DNA of 64,000 nt from Stegostoma tigrinum (lineage: Eukaryota): assembly GCF_030684315.1 (NCBI RefSeq), contig NC_081393.1, positions 16,239,479-16,303,478 of the forward strand, given 5' to 3'. Position numbers and translations under genes: made by a program. The notes under the pieces were generated by a model, which saw only the letters and a program-made list of their open reading frames with translations, was not told where the DNA came from and did no database searches. Positions 3,228 to 63,569 of the stretch are shown here, piece after piece; within the stretch, counting starts at the first letter, position 1; every line of letters starts with the position of its first letter.

Positions 3228-3883
3228 CCGATTAGGTTGTGGTTGGTTGGTTTGCGAAGCTGGTTCTTTGTTGTTTCACAGATGTTTCATTACCCTGCTG
3301 GGTAACATCATCAGCGCAGCCTCCGATAAAGTGCCTTTGTGTTTTCCTTCCTGGTTTTTAAACCCTGGAGTTGGTTGAGCTGGATCACCTCACTTGCGGT
3401 TTTCCTTTGCAATGGAGTGCACATAGGGTTGAGCTCGATGTCTTTTTGTCTTTGTTGATGGCTTTCTTAGTGGAGTATCAGGCTTCTAGGAGCCCCCATG
3501 CCTGTCTCTGCTTTGCTTGTCCCAGAATCTTGATGTGTCCCAATTGAATTGGTAGTTCTTATCCATATGGATAGAGATGAGTGGATGAGTGAGTATCGGT
3601 CGTGTCTTTTTGTAGCCAAAAGATGTTCGCGTACCCTTGTTATTAATTTCCTTCCTGTTTGTCCGATATATTGTTTGTCACAGTCTCTGCAGGGAATCTT
3701 GCATATGACATTTGGTCCTGTCCATAGTGGGGAGTGGATCTTTGGTTCAGGTGAGCAGGTGTCATAGGGTAAATGCGGGTTTGTGTGCTACTCTGATGCC
3801 CAGTGGTCCTAGGAGTCATGTGGTTAGTTCTGATGTGTTCTTGAAATAAGATAGCGTGATGAGTGTGTCGGGGTGCATGGTAT
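3228..3883 (-). mobile_element. Poseidon-like Penelope element, 3' part (linker, GIY-YIG endonuclease, terminal repeat with hammerhead motif)
   Basis: Minus strand reads MHPDTLITLSYFKNTSELTT*LLGPLGIRVAHKP, then NVICKIPCRDCDKQYIGQTGRKLITRVREH. Hammerhead-like motif at 3277-3318. Confidence 0.88.
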
Positions 3884-9701: not shown

Positions 9702-11339
9702 TCATAGTAAACTACGTTGTGTTTATAGCTCAGGAATTTATTGTTGCTTGTATGTTTCACCAAAGATGTCTGTGCATCAGAAGTAAGTAACACAAGAATA
9801 TGTTTCAAGCTTATTGCCAAATAGAACCAGAAAATACTCAAAATTAAGCCATCATCTTGGGGTGGGGGGAAACTAGAAATAGCATGGTAAGGTTTTAATT
9901 GTCGGTTGGAAACTAGTAGAAAGGCTTCCCGCTGTCAGCTCAGTCTGCTTTCTTTTCCATTTAAGCCATTGGTAGCAACGTAAGTGGGTATATCATAAGT
10001 GGATTGATTACTGCTGCCATTTTCACTCTTGTCAATGCAAGTTAAAATCAATCTGACTGAACTATGAGATAATCCTACAGCCTAAATGGTGAGCACATGG
10101 CATAGCATTACTTCAAGACTGGAAATAGTTTTAATAACTTTAATTTGTGTGGAGTAGTGTGTTTCAAAGAGAGGAATGTTAGTATTCGGGAGCAGCATTT
10201 GTACTAACTAATCAGGGAGCACTACAGCACAGTTAGATGCTGAGTGAAGCCTCAAACTCGATGAAATTCTTACTGCTTTACAGAAAATGCTGGAAGTACT
10301 CAGCAGGCTGTGCCAAGAGAAAGAGAAGCAGAGTTTAAGTTTCAGGCCTATGATGCCTCTGTTGTTGATTTCCAGCATTCCCAGTATTTTGCTTTGCTCG
10401 AGAGTGATTTTGTTTTCAGTTTTGAAAGGTTTTCTGAGTGCAGTTGAAAATGAGTGCTATGTGTGGAACAGTTTTATGCTGTAAACCTACGGCTACAAGA
10501 AATATGACTACCGTTGCCGATTCACTTGGGACCATTTACAGCCTGTAGATAAAGAAGACTTTTTCGTTCATCAATCTGAGCTTGATTCAAGAATCATTGA
10601 TTCTTCAAGTGTATCAGCTAGCATTCTTGCTTAATTTTTTTTGGAATAGTAATGTGATGAGAGCTCAGAAGACTAACTTCTCTGTAATGGTTTGAAAGGA
10701 TTTGAAATTCATGTTACTTACAAGCCCAAAGGCATGGCAATGATCTATGGAAAACATAAAAAGAAAAAGTACCTGCTCCCGGGAGAATTTTTTATTTGGT
10801 TTATCTTGTTGGACGGGTGAAGAGGAGAAGGGAGGAGTGGCAGCCAAAGGATCAGTACAGCTGCTGGGATGCTTGAGGCTGCATTGATGTAAGTTGTGGA
10901 AATAAGTCTAACTAGGGTATTCCTACTTATGTATGTGCCACTGCTTGCCCACAAAAAATGTTGGTTGTATGCCATGAATTACTGGAAGCAATTAATCTCA
11001 CAGTAGATTCCTGTGTACACTTTCTTTACACAATCATTCATCTATTTGCTTTCAAATTTACTTTATAAGTTAAAAGTGAGGAATTTAGCCCAAGAATTTT
11101 GAGTGTACTTGTAAATAGAAGATCTGTGGTGATTAGTGTAAAATTTAAAAGAAAAATGGAAGCCTGGCAACCATGAAGCAGCAAATTTGAGAAAGAAAGT
11201 ATTATCTCGTTTTTAGGACCTTCACATTGTCATGGGCTTATAGCTGGCCTTTCCCCATCCTCTTCCGATGTGTATTTTGAGTTCCAAATGTATATGGTTA
11301 TGGCCTTGAGAAGTATCCCTTTTGTAGAAAATTATTATT

Positions 11340-11502
11340 TATATGCCTAGTCCAGTTATGTTTCCAGTCAATTTGCAATTCTGTTTGGAAGTTTGGAAGA
11401 GAGTGCAGAGTAGAAAATTATTTATTTTCTACTCTGCACTCTCTTCCAAACTTCCAAACAGAATTGCAAATTGACTGGAAACATAACTGGACTAGGCATA
11501 TA
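11340..11502. repeat. Perfect palindrome, 79 bp arms with a 5 nt spacer
   Basis: 11340-11418 is the exact reverse complement of 11424-11502. Confidence 0.97.
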
Positions 11503-14354
11503 CATATTGTGGCTATAAGTAAGTAAGTTGGAGACTGGGAATTACGTGGCACATGACTCACTTCCTCACTCCCCTAAGCCTATCCACCATCTACAAGGCA
11601 CAAACCAGGAGTGTTTTGGAATACTTTCTGTTTAACTCAATGAAAGCATCTCCAGCAATACTCTAAAAGTTCAACACCATCCAGAACGAAACAGTCCTTT
11701 CCATCAAGATCCCATGCACTCCTTTAAACATTCACTACCAAAGCACATTGGCAGCAGTTTCTGTACCATTCAGAAGAAGCACTTCTGTGACTCACCAAGA
11801 TTCCTTAAAAACCTGTGATTTCTTGTACTTGCTAAGGTAAAGGCAGGAGACACACCACACTCTTAAACTTATTTGCAATTTAGTTTATACTGATTAGGAA
11901 GCCCTAAAGTTTTACAATAGTTAAATCTTTGAATAAACTGTAACAGACATTTAATGCAGCATTTAAAAAAGAAACAAGAGTAGGCCACTCAATCATTCGA
12001 GCTGGCTCCATCATTTAACAAGATCATGGCACATCTGATTTTGACCTCAACTGTACACACCAGCATATCACCAGTAATCTTTCATCCCCTTGGTAGTCAA
12101 GAATCTTCACAATCTCTGCAATTCTGCAGAGAATTCCATTGAAATCAATTGTGAGTTTAACCAACAGAATTCTATTCTGTATGATATTAGTGCTTTGCAG
12201 ACAATAATTCTGCTATGTTGAACATCAGGCAGAGAATGAAGAACAAGCCACCTGCCTACCCGTTCTTGGAAAGTCTAAATTCCATGGATCCAGAGGGAGC
12301 AGGAGTAATAATTTAAAATTGATGGGAGGCTGTAAACCTGAAATCTGTAACACTGCCAGTTAAATGTGCTTGTCATGTCAGTACGTAATAATTCTTTAGA
12401 GCATTTGTTCTGTGTGTATGACATGCCTGCAGCAGAGATGAGGAAATGAGATCTGAGCCCAACACGCCATAAGAGATAACAAAGGCTTTTAGAGTGGTGA
12501 GCTGAACTGCAGGATGTGGTTTCTGCAGAGTCTGCTAATGGCATGCTGTATAGGAAGCAGGAGGCTTCACGCTTCTAACTGAGAGTCTCATTTTGGGCTA
12601 GTAATTGATTTAATTATGACTTTGAACTTTACAGCCGTTGTGGGAAGGGGAAGAGGTTTTATATAATGCTTTGCCTACAGCTGTATTTTATGGGAATGAT
12701 AGAATATCTTGTACAAATTGCTTGGCACCCTTGTCCTGAAAATCAGTTATTCTCTTAAGGACCTACCACAATAATGGATTTGAATTTGTTCCATTAGAAT
12801 ATAATGAACAGGGTATGACTGGCCAGACCATTTCGTGGAGAACCCTTAAAGCCAGTAGGCAGAGGAGTGTTATCTCATTGACTAAAGATTTCATGACCTA
12901 CTTTATTCCTCAATTACATATCAGTCTTCATGCATTGGAGAAGTAATATCAATGTGGAGTTGAAGTGTTATCTGTGAAACAGTTGTAAAAGATTTTATAT
13001 TTAAGTCAGGTTCTCCACAGCTATCAAGGTCCAGACAATATCTCGAGCTTGAAGGAGTAGCTGCATGTCTAAGGAGGGATGAGAGTAGCTGCCCTTCATG
13101 CTCTCATGAGGTGGATATGGCACCAATGAGCCATTGAAACAGATCATTGTTGTCCAAGGGAAATCCCTATAATTCCTACCAGTTACAGAAGCCGATTGTT
13201 ATAGTTTTTAAAGGGCAGTCATTGTAGCCATAGAAAATCATTGCTGCTAGAATTCCTTTCAGATGACTTGACCATCTTTAGGTGCTTTAAAAGTCACCTC
13301 CCATCCATCATAAAAATCAGGAGGGGATCCGCTTGCTGTCTATTCCAGGACTCAGCTGTGTTCACAAATGCTGTGATAATGAAGCAACTGATACCATCAA
13401 CCCCGTAGTCTGTGTTTTTGTATTTCCCTGCCAGATTATAACTGTGGGCCACAAATACTGAGATAAGTGGCCAACATTGATGCCTTGCTTGGATGAGCCT
13501 AGTGTAGAAATGCTACTAGGCTGACAACTGACATTGAGTAGTCTAATGAGGTTTGTGCGCCATTTCCATCAACATTAGGTCCTTTAGATTTGGATGTTTG
13601 CTAGTCACCTGATGCCAAGGGTTTGAAAACGGGTTGAGGAATAATATGAATCTGAATGCTTTCTGTCTGTTATCTCATGCATTGGTACAAACAATGAGGA
13701 AGAAATTCATATTTGCAGTATGTCCAAACAAACATATGTAATTCTGTTATTTATAAACTGTAGGACAGAGGGGAATACATGTGGACAGCACCTGCAGTCA
13801 GTTTGCTTAAATTGGTGATTGAATTTGTGTTGAAGATAGGCATTGCTTATTTTTGGCATGGGGAGAATGGAGAAGGTGTGTTGTTGCAATAATGTCCCTG
13901 AGGACATCAATGTTCAGAATTGCAGTTGTGTATTCTGAGCGCACATGTTCAGTATGAGTAGCAATAGAATTTGTAACGCCAAATTTTAAAATTAGTTTGA
14001 AAATGTCTTGCCTTTTCGTACACCTTTTCTTTCATTACAACACCAATTGGCACCTTTTTAAGTAAAATTTCACAGGTGCTAGCAGCCTTCTGACGACTCC
14101 CAAAATTAGGTACTCTTTACATGCCTAGACAAATTAATTTGACAGACTATTCATAAAATACATCCTAGCTCAAATCTGGTCCTGTCCAATGCATGCATTC
14201 CATTAGTTCAAATCATAGCAATTTGGAATGCAAACTGTAATAATTTTTCACCTTGCTTCTCTCATCATCTTTGACTAACACTAAGGCCAGGGTATCATCC
14301 CATACTCTGTCCTGTTGAAGATCATCTAACCAAACCAGGTTACTTCTTGGATGT

Positions 14355-23874: not shown

Positions 23875-25598
23875 TATACACCTGCATTCCCATGCTGATG
23901 GTTTAAAAGCCCTCTGCTTCTTCCTGTCCCACAGACTCGACCAGTCCCCCTCCACTGACACCCTCGAGCGCTTAGCTGAACTTGTCCTCACCCTCAACAA
24001 CTTCTCCTCTAATTTCTCCCACTTCCGACAGACAAAGGGGGTGGCCATGGGTACCCGCATGGGCCCAAGCTATGCCTGCCTCTTTGTAGGTTACGTGGAA
24101 CAATCCTTCTTCCAAAGCTACGCTGGCCCTATCCCCCATCTCTTCCTCCGTTTCATTGATGACTTTCGGCGCCGCCTCATGTTCCCAGGAGGAGCTCAAA
24201 CAGTTCATCCACTTCACTAACACCTTCCACCCCAACCTTAAGTTTACCTGGACCATCTCTGACACCTCTCTCTCCTTCCTGGATCTCTCTGTCTCCATCT
24301 CTGGCATCCACCTGGAAACCGATATCCATTTTAAGCCTACCAACTTCCACAACTACCTAGAATATCCCTCCTCTCACCCACCTTCCTGTAAAAAGGCCAT
24401 CCCCTATTCCAAATTCCTTCGCTTCTGCCGCATCTGCTCCCGAGATGAGGCATTCCACTCCCGAACATCCCAGATGTCCTCTTTTTTTCAAAAACTGCAA
24501 CTTCCCCTCCACAGTGATCGGAAATGCCCTCGACCGTGTCTCCCGCAATTCATCCCTCACACCCCCTATCTGCAATAATAACCAAAATAGAATTACCACC
24601 CCACCAAACTCCAAATCCAACGTGTCATCCTCCGACATTTCCGCCATCTGCAATCTGACCCCACTACCAAAGACGTTTTTCCCTCCCCATCCTTATGTGC
24701 TTTCCGGAGGGACCACTCTCTCCGTGACTCCCTTGTCCGCTCCACACTCCCCTCCAGCCCCACCACCCCCGGCACTTTTCCCTGCAACCCAAGCAAGTGC
24801 TACACCTGCCCCTGTAGCTCACCCCTCACCCCCATCCCAGGCCCTAAGAAGACTTTTTGCATCAAACAGATGTTCACCTGCACATCTGTTAATGTGACAT
24901 ACTGTATCCGCTGTTCCCGTTGTGGTCTCCTGTACATCGGGGAAGCCAAACAGAGGCTTGGGGACCGCTTTGCAGAACACCTATGCTCAGTTCGCAACAA
25001 ACAACTACACCTCCCAGTTGCGAACCATTTCAAATCCACCCCCCCACCCCCCCCAACACTCCTTGGACGACATGTCCATCCTAGGCCTCCTGCATTGCCA
25101 CAATGACACCACCCGAAAGATGCAGGAATAGCATCTCATATTTCGCTTGGGAACCCTGCAGCCCAAGGGTATCATTGTGAACTTCACAAGCTTCAAAATC
25201 TCCCCACCCCCGACCACATGCCAAAACCAGCCCAGCTCGTCCCAGATTCCCTAACCATTCCTCCCACCTCAAGCCCCACCCCCATCCCCTACCCACCAAC
25301 CTCATCCCACTCCCCTGACCTGTCTGTCCTCCCTGGACAGGCCTATCCCCTCCCTAACTCCCCACCTAGATTCACTTTCACTGGCTCTAACCCCGCCTCT
25401 TTGACCCGTCTGTCTCCTCTCAGCCTAACTTCTCCTTTATCCATCTTCTATCCGCCTCCCCCATCTCCCTATTTATTTCAGAATCCCATTCCCCTCCCCC
25501 ATTTCTGAAGAAGGGTTCCAACCCTAAACGTCAAGCTTTCCTGCTCCTCTGATGCTGCTTGGCCTGCTATGTTCATCCAGCTTCACACCTTGTTATCT
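23875..25598 (+). mobile_element. Neptune-like Penelope element (family A), 5'-truncated and frameshifted
   Basis: GVAMGTRMGPSYA RT motif, GTFPCNPSKCYTCP linker, YCIRCSRCGLLYIGEAKQRLGDRFAEH GIY-YIG. Hammerhead at 25505-25532 has GAAA changed to TAAA. Confidence 0.94.
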
Positions 25599-32615: not shown

Positions 32616-34329
32616 TAACCGGTCTCGCCAGCTTTTCTGTAACTCCAGATTCACGGTAGTCTGGTTGATTCGTAACTGTTCTTAGAAATGGCTGAGCAAG
32701 CCACTTAGTTTAAGGGTATTTAGGTTAGGGAACGAATGCAAGCTGTGCCAGCTGTGACAAAATCCCATGAAGGAATGAATAAGAACAAAGTCAAGTTGGA
32801 ACAGCTCAAAGCCAGGGCAGAAATGAAATGTTCTACACATTCCTAAAATCAATTCTAAGTCAAGTATATGATTTTTTTTTAAATGTAAAAGTAGCAATTA
32901 AAAGAAGATGCTGTTATCTCATTAACCAAATGTGTTGGAACATTTCAAGGCTTTGTACCTTCTAAATGATTGTCTATTGACTTTCCCTCATTCTTTGAAT
33001 AAATGCCTTGGAATATTTTTGATGCATCTAATAAGATGGGTTGATCTGGGTTTAATATCTTGTCTGAAGAATAATATTCCCCTACTGTCGCACAGAAAAA
33101 GCAACTCAGATTGCGTGATTGAGCCTTGGAGTGGGATCTGAAACCACAAACTTGCAACACACATAAGAACACTGCATTCAGTTGAGTTGATACACAAGTA
33201 TGACTAAAAACTATCAATTGACAGTTCCAATAAATATTGGTATACCCATCAATATCTCTGGTAATCTGCAGTAGCTTCAGTAATGTGCCACATTTTAGCC
33301 CTTTCCTGTCTCTTTTGCATACTTTGCCACTTTGACCAGTTTATCAAACTTTATTCTGCTGATCAATGCAAAAAGCAAGTGTTGTTAAGAATAGGGCTTG
33401 GTGCATCTTGCTACGAAAGTGGGCAGATAATCCTTTTATGATCTAACACATCGGTTATAAAAGATGTCTACCCATAAAAGGTAAACCTTTGTATTGTGAG
33501 GTTCCTCATACCATATTATAAATACATATAAGTCCTTTAGATATTATTAATCAACCTTTTCATTCTGTCTTCATCCACTTCAATGAGAGCAAGCGGCCCA
33601 ATGTCTCCCGGAGAACTGGTCAAAATGAAGGAGATCGAGACCTTGCAAGGAGTGTGAGTCCAGCATGGCTACGCACTTAAGAAAGACAGTGGAACTATTA
33701 ACTTGATTTCTTTACAGTCCTTCCTAGTATTAAGTAGAAACATCATGTTTAACTTCTTTTAACTTTGTTTCTTTATTTTTCTACTTTTGTACCTAACATT
33801 TTGACCCTAGGAACCTTTGTACCTAAGTTGGGGTGCTGGGAATGGTGACATTGTACACTTCTGTACTTGAGTACACGTGACAATACAATCTAATTCTAAG
33901 TTTTAGTTCGTTTCAATCCATATTTCCTTATGGCTTTTATTGTTAATCTCCTCTGTTGGAGGTATGTGGTTTACTTTCACTGGGTAGGCAATTTCCTGCC
34001 AATTCAACATGCCTGTCAATTTTACAGTCATAAACCCCATTTTTGTTCAATCATCATAATACACTCAATATTCCAAAGCAAATTTCAATTACATGGTCTT
34101 TTGGAATTAACACATCTGTGAGCAATTGGCTATTTTAATCATATTATCCTGCTTTATCTTGCCACTATTTTGTTCAGAGTTTGCAATTTATCTGTTGAGT
34201 TGTTTGCCAATTGGTGATGTGCAACTTAAAAAGATGTTTTCACTGTTGGCCTAACTAAGATTTTTTTTGGAGCTGAATACATTGTCTAAGTCTCAAGTTT
34301 TACTGTAGACAAAAACAAAAACAGACCCC

Positions 34330-34660
34330 AGATTTAAAAACCAGGTGGGAAAAATCACCAAGATAATAAAATGTGAGGCTGGATGAATACAGCAGGCCAA
34401 GCAGCATCTCAGGAGCACAAAAGCTGATGTTTCGGGCCTAGACCCTTCATCAGAGAGGGAATTCTCCAGCATCTGCAGTTCCCATTATCTCTGGGAAAAA
34501 TCACCAACGCTTCATCAGGGCAACGGACCCTAGAGTTTAAAAGCCAGGCGGGAAAACACGCCGACACTTCTTCAGAGGCTGCACTGAGGATGTTACCAAG
34601 CATGGTAACGAAACGTCTGCGGAACAGCAAACCAGCTCGACGAGCCAACCAACCTCACCA
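34330..34660 (+). mobile_element. Poseidon-type terminal-repeat fragment (partly tandem-duplicated) hosting a family A mini-insertion at 34362-34491
   Basis: Homologous to 3240-3370. Insertion flanked by 16 bp TGGGAAAAATCACCAA (34346-34361, 34492-34507). Confidence 0.85.
34579..34622 (+). ncRNA. Minimal type I hammerhead ribozyme motif, intact core
   Basis: Stem I CUGCA/UGCGG; CUGAGGA; extra U; stem II GUUACCA-agca-UGGUAAC; GAAA; palindromic ACGU stem III; GUC site with predicted cleavage after 34617. Confidence 0.85.
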
Positions 34661-34838
34661 GAAGCACCAAATAAGATCCATTCAATAATAAGAATAAAAA
34701 GTGTCAGTGTGCTTTCTGTGAGGTGCTTATACACCTTACTGTGGAATATCTTTCTAAGAAATAAAGCTTTATCCTATCTTGGCAATCTATCACTTCGTAA
34801 CCATCCATCACTGCTGTCAGAAAATTATAAGTAAATGC

Positions 34839-35229
34839 TGTTTTCATTAGAGAGAAGAAGGTTGGGAGGTGACTTAATTGAAACATATAAAATAATCAGA
34901 GGGTTAGATAGGGTGGATAGGGAGAGCCTTTTTCCTAGGATGGTGACGGCGAGCACGAGGGGGCATAGCTTTAAATTGAGGGGTGAAAGATATAGGACAG
35001 ATGTCAGAGGTAGTTTCTTTACTCAGAGAGTAGTAAGAGAATGGAACGCTTTGCCTGCAACAATAGTAGATTCGCCAACTTTAGGTACATTTAAGTCGTC
35101 ATTGGATAAGCATATGGACGTACATGGAATAGTGTGGGTTAGATGGGCTTGAGATCGGTATGACAGGTCGGCACAACATCGAGGGCTGAAGGGCCTGTAC
35201 TGTGCTGTAATGTTCTATGTTCTATGTTC
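34839..35229 (+). mobile_element. Young CR1 3' fragment
   Basis: Nearly identical to 5728-6118. TAAATGC duplicated at 34832-34838 and 35230-35236. Confidence 0.95.
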
Positions 35230-38200
35230 TAAATGCACAACACTCTAGTTGTTGGTCTTGTTTACAATATATTCATCCCAAGAATACATGAAAAAAAGTG
35301 ATGCTACATGTAGCTGATTGTGAGTGGCTCATTCGTCTCAGCTTTAAAGTTATTCATAGTCTCTTGAGCCTTAAATCCTTTTCAAACTGCTTTGAGAAAT
35401 GTAAAAACACCTTTAAACCATTGAAGCCGAGTCAAAGGTATATTTTGTTAACACCAGAAGCAGCACTTTGATCTCTAATAATATGTGCATCTAATACCTT
35501 AAAAGTTTGAAGTTCACTCATTGTTGAGGAACATTCACAGATTCCACAAAAATGAGAATGGTTGATTGTGTCTGCGAATGAAGAGGTTGAGAGGAGTGAG
35601 GCTATTTTCAGTTCACCTCCTTCAAGTGCCCCCTTAAGAAGGGTAAAGCACAATACTGACTAATCCTAAAGATGTACACTTGGACAAACCATTCTTACAA
35701 ATGAGAACAATGGCATGAAGGTAGTAATAAAGCAAAACTTTTATATGTCAAATATGTTTCTTTTTCCATATGATGGATTTTTATTCCAAGCAAATACTGC
35801 AATTTATAATACAACTAAAAGCCTACATATGTATTTCAGTTTTAAAATAATGTATGTTTCTCGAGCTCTAAAAGAGTCATTTTATATACTAATTCAAGAG
35901 AACAGATCAGCTAAGTGGTGCAAGATATAGACACTTGGCAAATTAGATTCAAAAGATATTAGGCCCAAAGAAATATAAACAGTTATAGATTATCACAAAC
36001 TAAGGTAGCAATTTTCGTGATTAATCCAGAATTGCCCTGCAATCGTCCCATCCCTCTTTTCATTAACATTTGTAGAACGAGTGCCCATGAAATCAAAAAG
36101 TTGCATTTATGTTACTTGTTTTTCTTCTCAAATCTGCAAGAACTAACATATATGTAGCAATTTTATCTGGTGAAGTATTTCAATGCCCTGCATAGGAATC
36201 CTATTAACTAAAAATTAAGCTAAGCTCCATAGGTGTTTGGACAGGTGGCCAAACCCTTGATTGAAGAACAGACTTTAAGAACTGTCTTAAAGAAGAAAAG
36301 TAGGGTTGAGAGGTTTAGGGAGGTAATCCCTGAACTGAGGGCCCAAGAATCTAAAGATATGATGGTCAATAGTGGAGTGATTAAAATCAGAAAATTATGA
36401 GACCAGAATTGGAGGAGTACAAAAATCTAGTACAGTATTGTAGGACAGTAGAGGTAAGATGAACCTTCCACAGAGAAATGACATGTTCCAACCTATATGC
36501 TGGCCACATGTCTTTTATGGTAAACCATGTAACTTAAGAGGACAATGAGTAAATTTCTTCCACATAGTTGAAATTTCTATTGTGTGGAAATTGCGTAATT
36601 CAGATTTTCTTTTGCATCATTTTAAGGATTTCCTAAAGTTTTAACTTCTAGAGAAAGGTTCACACATTGATTGGCTTCCTCCCTTTTCTCGTTAGAAGAG
36701 CTTGTCAAGATCTGTTGTAGCTTTTTTTTTCATATAGTTTCAGAACCTGCAGTTTCTTTTCATTTTATAATTTTTCCCGACTTTATTAATGCACCTTTAA
36801 TTGTAATATATGTTTACGTAGTGGTACAGAGAAAATCATGTATGCACAGACTTTGCAAGTCCCAAAAGTACTGGATTTATTTTGTTCACACAACTGTGAT
36901 GAAGGATGTATGATATGCACCTTACTTGTGATGTGTCACCAGGTTTCTATTTCCTGTAGATTTGTAATGCTTGTATTTCACATTCAGAAGGAACCTTATC
37001 ATTTTTAAATTGCCACTTGGATGAGAAACATGCAATGGTGGAAGATAATCTTAATTTTATCATGTGAATACAGACACCAAGGAACATCTGCTTGAACATA
37101 TTTATTATTCAGATTAAGGTTTTATTTAAAGCAGCCTCAATTGCTGTTTGATGTTTTAATTATCTAACAATCCATAGTGTCACATTCTGAGAATATTATA
37201 CGTGCAGATCAGCTTTGGAATTTTGTTGAGATAATCCTCTCTCCTGAATGTTGCCCTTTCAAGTATATGATGTCCAATCATTTGTTGTTCACATGACTTG
37301 AAAGAATAACTCTCCTTGCAATTGTGGACAAACTAAAGGTTCATGAGCATTCAAGGTGGCTTTGGTTTCTACTGCTCACGGACCTAACTGCAGAATTTAA
37401 TTTGTAAGCATGATTTGAGCTCATCTGGAATTTGTCATCTGTTTGCCAAGCACCTGTAACTGAAAATGTGTTTTCCTCATGCTATTCTCCAGATATTGAA
37501 ATGCTACAATAGAATTATTGGCAGGAAAGGTGCATGCAGAAGATCTGCTGTCTTTTAGCTTCAGGCCTTTCCCATCAGAAATTTCTGAGCTGAGTGAACA
37601 GCTGTCTTCACACCAGGCTGTCTGAGAGAGATTATGTACTCATGCTTGAACTGACGACAGCAACTACTTGCAGTAAGCTACCTCGATGAGTGTCACTGTG
37701 AAGTGACTCTACACAATTACTTCACATGAATCTTTTTGTTGTTTTATCAAAAAATAAATAGTTTTGAACTTTTTGAATAATTTTTCAGCTGATACTGGCA
37801 CATTCTGAGAGTTCAGGCTATTGATGAAAACTTCAATACTGTAGATTCATGGCACTTTGTTCACAGACATTATCTTTTAGAAATGAAAACATTAGCAGCT
37901 GCTGATTGTGAAGGGAGAGTAATTTCAGAAGATGTAAAATAACATTATAGGATTTTAATTCAAGTTACTGAAGCGATAGTGCCGATATTTATAGATAGGC
38001 ACGCACAGCGCACGCTTGTGAAAGAAGCAGTGTCACTTTACAAGTATTGTTATCCTTCAATAATATCCAGTGAAGTATACATCTTGTGCAGCCACTTTTC
38101 CCCTCTTTTTATTCTAATCTAAATACTCAGTTGTTGCTTATTTTTATGCAACAGTACTCCCTATTGCGAGGACCTGGGATAATTCTGGTATCCACCCTTC

Positions 38201-45684: not shown

Positions 45685-45749
45685 GGTGTTTGCCGATTGC
45701 CAGATGATAGTGATGGTAGTGATTATCCCTTCAGGAGAATTGACATTAG
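45685..45749 (+). CDS. POLB: DNA polymerase beta, internal exon (equivalent to human exon 12, 65 bp)
   Basis: Polypyrimidine tract and CAG acceptor, GTAAGT donor at 45750. Translates GVCRLPDDSDGSDYPFRRIDI(R), matching human [22 protein letters not shown] including catalytic D256. Confidence 0.96.
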
Positions 45750-51367: not shown

Positions 51368-51564
51368 GATAACAAGGAGTGGAGCTGGATGAACGCAGCA
51401 GGCCAGGCAGCATCAGAGGACCAGGAAGGCTGACGTTTTCTGAAGAAGGGTCCAGATCCGAAACGTCAGTTATCCTGCTTCTCTGATGCTGCCTGGCCTG
51501 CTGTGTTCATCCAGCGCCACTCCTTGTTATCCCAGACTCCAGCATCCTACTATCTCTGAGTCAA
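51368..51564. mobile_element. Family A PLE fold-back mini-insertion just upstream of POLB exon 13
   Basis: ~70 bp inverted arms plus tail. TATTGTTTTAA duplicated at 51357-51367 and 51565-51575. Confidence 0.9.
51438..51469 (+). ncRNA. Minimal hammerhead ribozyme motif, intact core, weak stem I
   Basis: CUGAAGA-A-GGGUC-ca-GAUCC-GAAA-CG-UC; predicted cleavage after 51467. Confidence 0.65.
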
Positions 51565-51631: not shown

Positions 51632-51771
51632 GCTAATTCCAAAAGATCAGTATTTCTGCGGTGTGCTTTATTTCACTGGCAGTGATCTTTTTAACAAGAA
51701 CATGAGGACCCAAGCACTAGAAAAAGGCTTCACATTGAATGAGTACACAATTCGTCCTTTGGGAAGCACAG
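51632..51771 (+). CDS. POLB: DNA polymerase beta, internal exon (equivalent to human exon 13, 140 bp)
   Basis: tgttgcag acceptor, GTAAGA donor. Encodes (R)[46 protein letters not shown](G), with the YFTGS, N279 and R283 motifs of Pol beta. Phase continues from exon 12. Confidence 0.98.
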
Positions 51772-58140: not shown

Positions 58141-59259
58141 AAAAACAGAAACACTCAGTTCACAACTGCTCATTAATTTATAATTGCTTTCAATCAAAAG
58201 CCTTTCCTGAATAAATAAATAAGGTAGTGGTAAAAAGGACTTTCAGGACCTTCTGCCCAAACTTGATTTTAAATATACCAGAATGTTGTCAAAATATTGC
58301 ACTGTTTTACCTTTTACGCACACATGGTGCATAAAGATCATAAACAAATAGTTTTCTTCACTATTTTCAGACTTTGTTAAAATAACAGTTAAAATATTTT
58401 ATAATTGAGTGAAGAGCTCTGAAATTTATTAAATGTGGCTTGGCCAATGGTATTCTTAAACTGAATTCAAGAAGTGGAACGCCTCTTAATATTCATGCAT
58501 TTTCCCATTTGCTTCCCTATCAGAGGAGTTAATATTGCGTTGCTACCTGAGAATGTTCTTCAGTGTATTTTTGTCAGTGGAAGCATATGCTAACAAGAAT
58601 TTCAGCCTATGCAGATAAGGTTTTGAACTCGGAAATACCCTTCAATACATGATGAAAATTATTCCTCCAAGTGCAAGTAGCAGGGTTCTAGTGGAGAAAT
58701 ATGTACTTGTTTCTCAGAAAAGATATGATGCACACCTGGCCAGGTGGGAATTACAGAATGAGCTTCCTGAATATCATTGCAAAAGCAGTTAAAATTATAG
58801 TTTGCCACTAATTAGCTAATGATGTGAAAGACTGTCTGTTTCTCTGAAGGGATTCAAAAGTATTGCAGGTGTTGTATTAAACAATGTCAAAGCATCAATA
58901 AACATGTTAACTAATTTATGTCATGTTTTAACAAAATGTAATAAATTCACGTACATAATTTAAGAAATTTAAACCAACCTTTTAGGTGTCTTACCAAAAA
59001 TATCAGCCCTGTTGTTTGAAAATTATTTCCACTGGTTTCTGATGCTTCTTGAATGTTGAAATTGAGCCTGAATTTTCTTAATTGTGTTGCCTTATTTTGC
59101 AAGCATATGACACAAGTTACAAAGCATTGCTTACCCAATCACAGTTTCTTATTTTGCCTCCTCTTGTTTTTGTCTCCAGTGGGTCTAGATGTTTTTCTAT
59201 CACAACTTTTTGTCTTCATCGGTTAATGTGTAGTATTGCAGTCAGAGATTCTCAGAATT

Positions 59260-59482
59260 AGCAAGTTTTGAGAAGATTTTTAGCTCAGGTTGAGGTTCTG
59301 GATGTGAGTTTGCTCGCTGAGCTGGAAGTTTAGTTTTCAGACATTTCGTCACCATTCTAGGTAACATCATCAGTGAGCCTCCGATGAAGCTTCATCGGAG
59401 GCTCACTGATGATGTTACCTAGAATGGTGACGAAACGTCTGAAAACTAACCTTCCAGCTCAGCAAGCAAACTCACATCCAGA
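59260..59482. mobile_element. Poseidon-type fold-back mini-insertion: loop-less 93 bp palindrome with two opposed hammerheads
   Basis: 59297-59389 vs 59390-59482, 3 mismatches, centre GAAG|CTTC. Flanks AGATT(C/T)TCAGAATT (59246-59259, 59480-59493). Confidence 0.92.
59403..59442 (+). ncRNA. Minimal type I hammerhead ribozyme motif, intact core
   Basis: UCA-CUGAUGA-U-GUUACC-uagaau-GGUGAC-GAAA-CG-UC-UGA; predicted cleavage after 59439. Confidence 0.8.
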
Positions 59483-60949
59483 TTTTCAGAATTCTATGTC
59501 AATCCTCACTCCATTGACCTGGACAGTCCTCACCTACCCTACATTCTCACTTATCACCATCCCTTAACCTAATGCATAGTTGTGATCATCCCACAACTGT
59601 GGAACCTATTTCCATCAATTCATGCTTTCCTTCTACATTCCAAGTCTTGAACATCGGGTAGATAAGGAAAATCTTCCGAACTCAAAGATCTTTTGAGGCC
59701 AATTGCCTGCTGCAAAGATAACTTGAAGAAGCTGGGACTTCTTCCTGAAGAGAAGTCTGAAAGGAGAATTGAAATAATTTTGTTAGAATTTTTCAATGTT
59801 GAGAGTGAGCTGAATAGAGTAAACTGATGTGCAAAAGAAGCAAGGGTGATATTAAAACAAATGTTTTCATTCAGCAAGAAGTTAGGAGATAGGCTGCACT
59901 GCTTGGAAGTGTGGTTGGAGACAGGTTCAGCTGAGACAGTCAAGAAGGCTTTCAGTGATTATTTGGATTGGAAAGGTGTGTTGGGGTGTGGTGAAAAGAC
60001 AATATTGGTAATGATGTTATCACTTGGTAAAGATGCCCATTTGAAAAGCTGGTTCATGCACAGCAGGCCAGTCACCTTTTGCATCAAGCAATTGTGACAT
60101 AGCAATTCTATGAACGATTTCCTCTTCTACTTTATCTAACTTCAAAATTGTCTGGCACAGAGTCTTTCAGGAGAGGAGTGCATTTTTTGGATTTTAATGT
60201 GGCAGACATCTGACCAAATCACAGGCATGATTTTGTCTCTGGAGTTCTGCATCTGGAGGACTGAATCTTAAAATTTACCCCTCACACTCATAATTAGCTG
60301 ATCATCTCTGTGAAATTCAGGCAAATAGTTAGAGGTGTTGCCTTGTCCTGCCTCTATTTTACTTTTTATTAAATGTTATTTTCTTAGCTTCCTTACTTTT
60401 GTCCAGCAAGCACTGTGTTGCCAGGACTTCTCAAAGATACAAGCTTAGGTTAAAGTATCTAGCCCTGTGATCGTATCAGTTATGCTTAAAAGTTCCTTGA
60501 ATGTATGAACAAGGAGCAAGAAGAGGCTACTCGATCGTCCCATCTGCTCTGCTATTATATAAGATCATGGATAATTTGATTTTAACCTCAACTCTACATT
60601 CCTGCATATCCCTGATCATTTTTCCTCCCCTTGGTAATAAAAATTCTCACCATCTCTCATTTAAACATATTTTAAAATTCTGCATCCACTGCATTTGGAG
60701 GAAGGAAATTCCTCAGACTCTCAATCCTCTGAGGGAAAAGTGTTTCCTCATCTCTGTTTTGGGGAGAAAGCAGGAAAGTGAAGTTGGGATTATCAGATCA
60801 GTCATGATCTCATTGAATGACAGAGCAGACTCAGTGAGCTGAATGGCCTATTTCTACTGTGTCTTATGGTCTTAAGGAGCTAACTCTTTTTTTCAAACTA
60901 TGATCTCTAGTTCTAGATTCTCCCACAAGAGAAAACATGTTTTCAAAAT

Positions 60950-63474: not shown

Positions 63475-63569
63475 GAATGCCAGGAGAACCGCTGCCTGTT
63501 GAAAGTGAAAAGGACATCTTTGATTACATTGACTGGCAATACCGAGAGCCACAAGAGCGAAGTGAGTGA
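63475..63569 (+). CDS. POLB: DNA polymerase beta, terminal coding exon (equivalent to human exon 14)
   Basis: ctgcag acceptor. Encodes (G)[30 protein letters not shown]-stop (TGA 63567-63569); human is [31 protein letters not shown]. Confidence 0.98.

Follow-up and report, generated by a model that had tools for sequence, protein, structure and literature searches.

Can a 44-nt hammerhead motif on the sense strand of a DNA polymerase beta (POLB) intron cut the transcript that carries it, or is it what a mobile element left behind? The question arises at positions 34579-34622 of the stretch of Stegostoma tigrinum DNA analysed here (64,000 nt; hereafter the window). The motif is very probably a relic: a Poseidon-type Penelope-like hammerhead within a truncated end piece in POLB intron 11, likely inert because POLB holds no matching partner copy and a blocking hairpin is predicted. 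The single locus matters little in itself, since thousands of such decayed retroelement ends exist. If POLB pre-mRNA were cut here, a transposon ribozyme would be acting on a DNA-repair gene, yet the evidence points away from this.

The motif and its setting in POLB

The preliminary description had listed a full core (CUGAGGA/GAAA/GUC), a 7-bp stem II, a 5-bp stem I, an extra nucleotide after A9 and a stem III reduced to the palindrome ACGU, all of which are read directly from the letters:

34579..34622, + strand: minimal type I hammerhead, predicted cleavage site 34617/34618
34579-34583, + strand: 5' arm of stem I, CUGCA
34584..34590, + strand: core C3-A9, CUGAGGA
34591, + strand: extra U after A9
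34592-34598/34603-34609, + strand: stem II, GUUACCA/UGGUAAC, 7 bp with a 4-nt loop
34610..34617, + strand: GAAAC-GUC, that is G12-A15.1, ACGU instead of stem III, and C17
34610-34613, + strand: GAAA
34613-34616, + strand: palindrome ACGU, which replaces stem III
34614-34615, + strand: C-G
34616, + strand: U16.1
34617, + strand: C17
34618-34622, + strand: 3' arm of stem I, UGCGG, giving a 5-bp stem I that includes one U-G pair

The segment has the core of a minimal hammerhead (min-HHR; CUGANGA, GAAA, UH), a helix II of 7-8 bp closed by G10.1-C11.1 with one base after A9, a helix I of 4-5 bp, though stem I is predicted to be unformed in the native context, and, in the absence of a loop 3, the palindromic 15.1-16.1 arrangement at 34613-34616. 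The seventh pair of stem II needs the T at 34603, where the commonest letter in the family is C. The intron 11 copy has lost none of the catalytic positions, and its stem I and the CpG of its palindrome are likewise intact; the fold of the 44-mer has a z-score of -2.8. Motifs with a stem II of at least 4 and a stem I of at least 3 were counted on both strands of 300 dinucleotide-shuffled versions of the window, 19.2 Mb altogether. These contained 6, or ~0.02 per window, whereas the real window has 4. An Rfam scan at E<=1 listed no hammerhead family. Judged on sequence, 34579-34622 is a genuine and complete Penelope-like minimal hammerhead motif.

Pfam searches and scans for splice-flanked open stretches placed 14 POLB exons on the + strand, from C52:16188389 to window position 63569, with polymerase-beta-type exons found by Pfam on this strand both upstream of and within the window. 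The exon scan used the exon lengths of vertebrate POLB, and the translations were recognised as those of POLB. The exon at 51663-51770 is similar to DNA polymerase beta chains, with an E-value of 4e-16. The hammerhead lies between the 11th and 12th of these exons, 38 kb downstream of exon 11 in an intron of ~49.2 kb, which bears out its earlier placement on the POLB sense strand. The exons that follow it are:

45685..45749, + strand: POLB exon 12, the first downstream exon, 11,068 nt past the predicted cut
51632..51771, + strand: POLB exon 13, with similarity to DNA polymerase beta chains (E 4e-16)
63475..63569, + strand: POLB exon 14, its coding portion up to the stop codon

POLB contains eight motifs with an intact core, four sense and four antisense, a 4:4 split that is too small for a selection test. 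Only 34579-34622 among the eight combines its own 5-bp stem I, a 7-bp stem II and the palindrome.

The element family and the history of the site

A query with 34507-34700 gave 3,516 first-look candidates in the 3.2-Gb genome, and the best among the 40 that were scored matched at 90-94% over 34520-34660. The site is built from the following pieces:

34520..34660, + strand: fragment of the 3' terminal repeat (pLTR) of a Poseidon-type Penelope-like element, 141 nt, 5'-truncated, stopping at the inner of two family 3' ends
34320..34361, + strand: first part of an incomplete duplicate (~55 nt overall) of the pLTR fragment's opening bases
34508..34519, + strand: end of this duplicate, whose UCAUCAG (34512-34518) keeps the family A that is a T in the main copy
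34362..34491, - strand: 130-bp insertion of a second Penelope-like family, with an inverted tail and its own minus-strand hammerhead at 34453-34426

At most of 29 other loci, the C-terminal end of an endonuclease frame lies upstream of the pLTR unit. In twenty longer copies, frames of reverse transcriptase (RT) and GIY-YIG type are present; these copies are truncated at the 5' end, and an inverted copy frequently lies upstream. Pfam recognised RVT_1 in one of five ORF scans (E 1.4e-10) and again in another (E 2e-4), while the GIY-YIG match was below the cut-off (E 0.16), with the motif visible by eye in the translations. The family thus has a single ORF with RT and, at its C terminus, GIY-YIG, the latter by a weak Pfam score and by eye, together with the Penelope-like traits of hammerhead-bearing terminal repeats, 5' truncation, inverted 5' copies and an optional tail of 30-40 nt. 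Its protein relatives (P0001-P0005) are 43-55% identical. An additional zinc-finger-like motif within the linker is a feature of Neptune and Nematis, according to PMC8557442; inspection by eye of the RT-endonuclease linker translations found no such motif, so that this criterion points to the Penelope/Poseidon clade. Family membership and the published architecture together confirm what the preliminary description had proposed, namely a Penelope-like minimal hammerhead of the dimer type.

In 66 family copies, the 3' end falls 66-74 nt past the AUG (34 copies), 103-110 nt past it (31 copies) or, once, at 79 nt; the outer peak falls where the query copy ends, yet copies there do run into unrelated flanks. 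The window copy ends at the inner site. A natural repeat-ORF-repeat copy, L050, contains stops and frameshifts, and a Pfam search of its first 43 codons gave nothing useful. The L050 protein (L050:2002-4446) is ~49-53% identical in RT and endonuclease to P0004, which is named from the fluke Dicrocoelium dendriticum, and the two are similar also in their first ten residues, which the hammerhead itself encodes. This likeness may reflect slow evolution or horizontal transfer.

The 130-bp insert is flanked by a 16-bp target duplication (34346-34361 and 34492-34507), which places the Poseidon piece first and the insert second. At locus L048, the end that matches the insert follows an ORF with a cysteine-rich linker, so the second family is likely Neptune-type; Pfam found nothing useful in that family's ORF. 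The partial duplicate stops before stem I. A plausible course of events begins with the element's RT starting on a tandem transcript, ~70 nt inside the following ORF copy, and copying back through the hammerhead. It would have halted after ~140 nt and then re-copied ~55 nt; a second element would subsequently have entered the duplicate, leaving the target duplication, and the copy would thereafter have decayed neutrally.

Relatives of the motif are abundant. Exact matches to a loose core pattern number 13,907 across the genome, compared with 2 for the reversed control, and the perfect family core with stem II has 204 copies against 0. The window copy differs from the commonest letters by 5.8%, the family median being 6.0% (66 copies), and every sampled copy is at least 2% away from them. 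Bases private to the window copy stand at 34531, 34560, 34571, 34627 and 34640. The core is intact in 43 of the 66, and core plus ACGU in 35. Among 29 copies from loci picked by a 961-nt RT/endonuclease query, which carries the repeat at its end, non-CpG mismatches amount to 6/174 and 6/145 in the core boxes (0.034 and 0.041) and to 85/2098 in the rest of the repeat (0.041). Over all 66 copies, the core lies slightly below its flanks (0.025 versus 0.038), in a set that includes 30 loci picked for likeness to the stretch around the motif. We read these figures as family cores decaying as fast as their flanks, which would mean neutral decay after insertion.

The window holds further repeats of this kind. 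At 3236-3883 (- strand) lies an older relative of the Poseidon family, ~72-77% identical, with an endonuclease tail, an intact core and GAAACAUC in place of the palindrome. Hammerheads of the second, very abundant family stand at 25505, 39342, 44410 and 51440 (+) and at 34453 (-), with a 5-bp stem II and a stem I of at most 2 bp; the one at 51440 is ~160 nt upstream of POLB exon 13. A family-B hammerhead folded back at its upstream arm occupies 59257-59484 (cores at 59373, minus, and 59406, plus; L067/L068), and its junction sequence recurs at another locus, which may mean that a hairpin subfamily was copied or that fold-back recurs at this point. A near-perfect 170-nt inverted repeat at 11336-11506, whose Rfam microRNA matches are far under the gathering score, is probably a fold-back repeat. 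Another high-copy repeat, at 34837-35235, ends in a short tandem tail and presumably resembles a LINE 3' end. Beyond this genome, a metagenome scan reduced 182 candidate stretches to 8 loci, three of which contain four hammerhead-like motifs (L089:3405, L092:52 and 2709, L093:654) that adjoin related endonuclease frames and have longer stem II regions. No ORF-starting AUG was seen in the cores of these four motifs, and an upstream complementary arm was absent by eye at all three loci.

Predicted folding and prospects for cleavage

The motif had been described as not trapped in a hairpin. This holds insofar as a search of 33000-36500 found no long inverted copy of it, in contrast to the cores at 59373 and 59406. 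The accompanying statement that no adjacent antisense arm sequesters it does not stand up to prediction, as a short arm immediately upstream is predicted to pair with the core:

34569..34575, + strand: anti-core arm UCUUCAG, 7 nt, 8 nt upstream, complementary to CUGAGGA

In nearest-neighbour predictions, which leave aside tertiary contacts, Mg2+ and proteins, stem I forms with a probability of 0.93 in the bare 44-mer, 0.36 with 12 nt of upstream sequence and at most 0.05 in all eight longer contexts. The competing hairpin reaches 0.87-0.99 in six of the eight contexts with at least 20 nt of native flank on each side, the remaining two giving 0.24 and 0.62. Its probability is 0.85 within 411 nt and 0.94 once the chain reaches 34591. 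Absolute folding numbers mean little here, since even the bare 44-mer is given an open core of only 0.006. The arm-core hairpin is valued at -6.9 kcal/mol, compared with -3.0 in three typical family copies. Position 34571 is A in 61 of 66 family copies, G in 3 and T in 2, the window copy having T; the A is also kept by the neighbouring duplicate and by contigs from other copies. In the four contig runs, which come from one sample, unique contigs broke at the repeats. The rare T turns a mismatch into a U-G pair and thereby strengthens the predicted blocking hairpin. For predicted core sequestration, the window copy ranks second of 32 intact-core family copies, whose median is 0.13. We also considered as a trap, and rejected, the antisense boxes of the minus-strand neighbour (34426-34433 and 34447-34453), which are complementary on paper but were not among the top partners above a probability of 0.03. 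Tests of the 44-nt motif should include the upstream flank.

Cleavage would further call for a partner. For min-HHRs, PMC4209133 reports no cleavage of single motifs and low cleavage of dimers, and proposes a dimer model for Penelope-like hammerheads. In a live element, cleavage would be expected only from a double hammerhead, two copies joining to form stem I and the 4-bp ACGU helix, and the element's own protein would probably help. Since both helices span two copies, as we infer from the topology, partners need matching arms. The other three sense-strand intact cores in POLB can form no more than 2 bp of stem I with the arms of the window copy, so a dimer in cis has no partner to complete it. 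For the bare 44-mer, the dimer is predicted to be less stable than two monomers by 5.5 kcal/mol, and with 20-nt flanks by 22.9 kcal/mol. The Poseidon hammerhead of an anole depended on the protein of its element, and RNA-seq showed no ends at its site (PMC11167929). On POLB pre-mRNA, the arm at 34569-34575 would be transcribed first and is predicted to capture the core, with no second copy to pair with. The earlier ranking of the motif as the best candidate for an active ribozyme therefore survives on paper, where it is the best-formed of the eight POLB motifs; as a statement about activity it is undercut by the predicted sequestration, the missing cis partner and the published inactivity of single motifs.

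Might the relic nevertheless be cut now and then in trans, another family transcript or a live protein-RNA complex completing the double hammerhead, as an incidental event that serves the host in no way? The motif has kept its core, its stem I and its palindrome, partner arms could come from at least 204 perfect family copies, and the protein of the anole element activates its hammerhead in vitro (PMC11167929). However, the dimer is predicted to be unfavourable even at a 1 M standard state, the sole natural two-repeat copy seen (L050) carries stops and frameshifts, and among the sampled copies, all at least 2% from the commonest letters, no live family member was seen. We regard such cleavage as quite unlikely.

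Lower still, and very unlikely in our estimate, stands co-option of the hammerhead as an intronic POLB regulator that would cut the pre-mRNA in a race with splicing, in the manner of CPEB3. The sense-strand position, the status of best-formed motif in POLB and the 11,068 nt to the next exon, near the 9,931 nt given for Cpeb3 in PMC10919898, would fit such a role. Within a 49-kb intron, however, the match in exon distance is unremarkable. The Cpeb3 ribozyme cuts alone with a half-life of 2-3 min (PMC10919898), whereas the minimal architecture does not cut alone (PMC4209133). Moreover, the divergence of the copy is ordinary, and the single change that sets it apart makes the predicted blocking hairpin stronger.

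That the motif arose by chance within the intron, as the Rfam scan without a hammerhead family might suggest, has a negligible probability, given ~0.02 expected per window and a location at the known position of such motifs, and is refuted by membership of the repeat family. An inert relic of the Poseidon family thus remains our preferred reading of the locus.

Codons in the core and comparison with known systems

The core has a second, coding role in the family:

34590..34592, + strand: A9-U9.1-G10.1, AUG, start codon of the element ORF, from the L050 two-repeat copy and the P0004 alignment
34585-34587, + strand: U4-G5-A6, the codon at which the family RT-endonuclease frame ends

Residue 1 of P0004 (824 aa) aligns to the AUG made of A9, the extra U and G10.1 in the upstream repeat of L050, so the extra nucleotide is the U of the start codon. 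A start codon in the hammerhead was already known for PAc, the anole element (PMC11167929). At the other end of the frame, the endonuclease enters the core in the U4-G5-A6 phase in 39 of 45 anchored family copies (12 further copies have no anchor), and the codon is UGA in these 39 except for two with a mutated U. In sister family B, all nine anchored copies enter the core in another phase, with no stop in the core. As far as these aligned copies go, the family hammerhead core is dual-coding, with a start codon at A9-U9.1-G10.1 and a stop codon at U4-G5-A6. A core with both codons makes the role of the Penelope hammerhead, be it in RNA processing or in translation control, easily testable.

For the Poseidon family, as distinct from the window copy, the terminal repeat could even be a three-way switch, in which stop and start share cUGAnGAUG and the upstream arm holds the ribozyme off until the protein refolds it. 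If true, this would explain why such hammerheads need protein and would tie cleavage to translation. We consider it unlikely. In each of the three related families sampled, an arm with complementarity to the core lies 7-8 nt upstream. Its pairing, 95% over nine hand-picked rows, was matched or exceeded in 159 of 500 shuffles and so does not rise above them, which keeps our estimate low. The same nine rows, two of them chosen for a U at position 7, show the hammerhead helices 90.6% paired with 2 pairs changed on both sides, and 45-94 of 500 shuffles score as high. In typical copies, the arm hairpin is a minor predicted fold (median probabilities 0.13 and 0.17). Family B, lacking the stop in the core, and the armless metagenome motifs count against the switch and leave its support thin. 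A literature search on Penelope hammerheads together with an inactive alternative conformation found no report.

Min-HHRs in the terminal repeats of metazoan Penelope-like elements were described in 2014 by Cervera and De la Pena (PMC4209133). Their accessible text gives a helix II of 7-8 bp, a helix I of 4-5 bp, an unpaired base between 9 and 10.1, G10.1-C11.1 and palindromic 15.2-16.2, and thousands of motifs per genome, mostly as single copies. The POLB copy shares all of these listed features, with no architectural difference. That part of the paper names neither a shark-type genome nor a stop codon within the core, nor an anti-core arm upstream.

Another close system is PAc, the Poseidon element of Anolis carolinensis (PMC11167929). 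As in our family, its ORF combines RT with a C-terminal GIY-YIG and starts at the base of stem II. PAc is cut 26 nt after the start codon, the POLB copy's predicted site lying 28 nt from the A of its AUG. The two PAc 3' ends are a tail of 30-40 nt apart (~36 nt in this family), and its two reverse-transcription starts are matched by the family's two 3' ends. PAc, however, was investigated as an entire element together with its protein, whereas the POLB copy is a 141-nt remnant without an ORF.

Non-LTR retrozymes also carry a type I hammerhead, related to Penelope terminal repeats, and solo monomers are common, as stated in a preprint (bioRxiv 10.64898/2026.07.22.740005). The preprint describes them as tandem arrays with a hammerhead in each unit, while the POLB copy is single and its family runs upstream into RT and endonuclease. 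We rejected a retrozyme at this site, since POLB has one sense-strand hammerhead of the family, the duplicate ends before stem I and there are no tandem units.

The CPEB3 ribozyme (PMC10919898) resembles the POLB copy in being intronic, on the sense strand and ~10 kb ahead of the next exon. It differs in its HDV-like fold, in being active alone and in being described as functionally conserved, none of which applies to the POLB copy. By every testable sequence feature, then, the POLB copy is the min-HHR of a Penelope-like element, an ordinary relic of a known kind.
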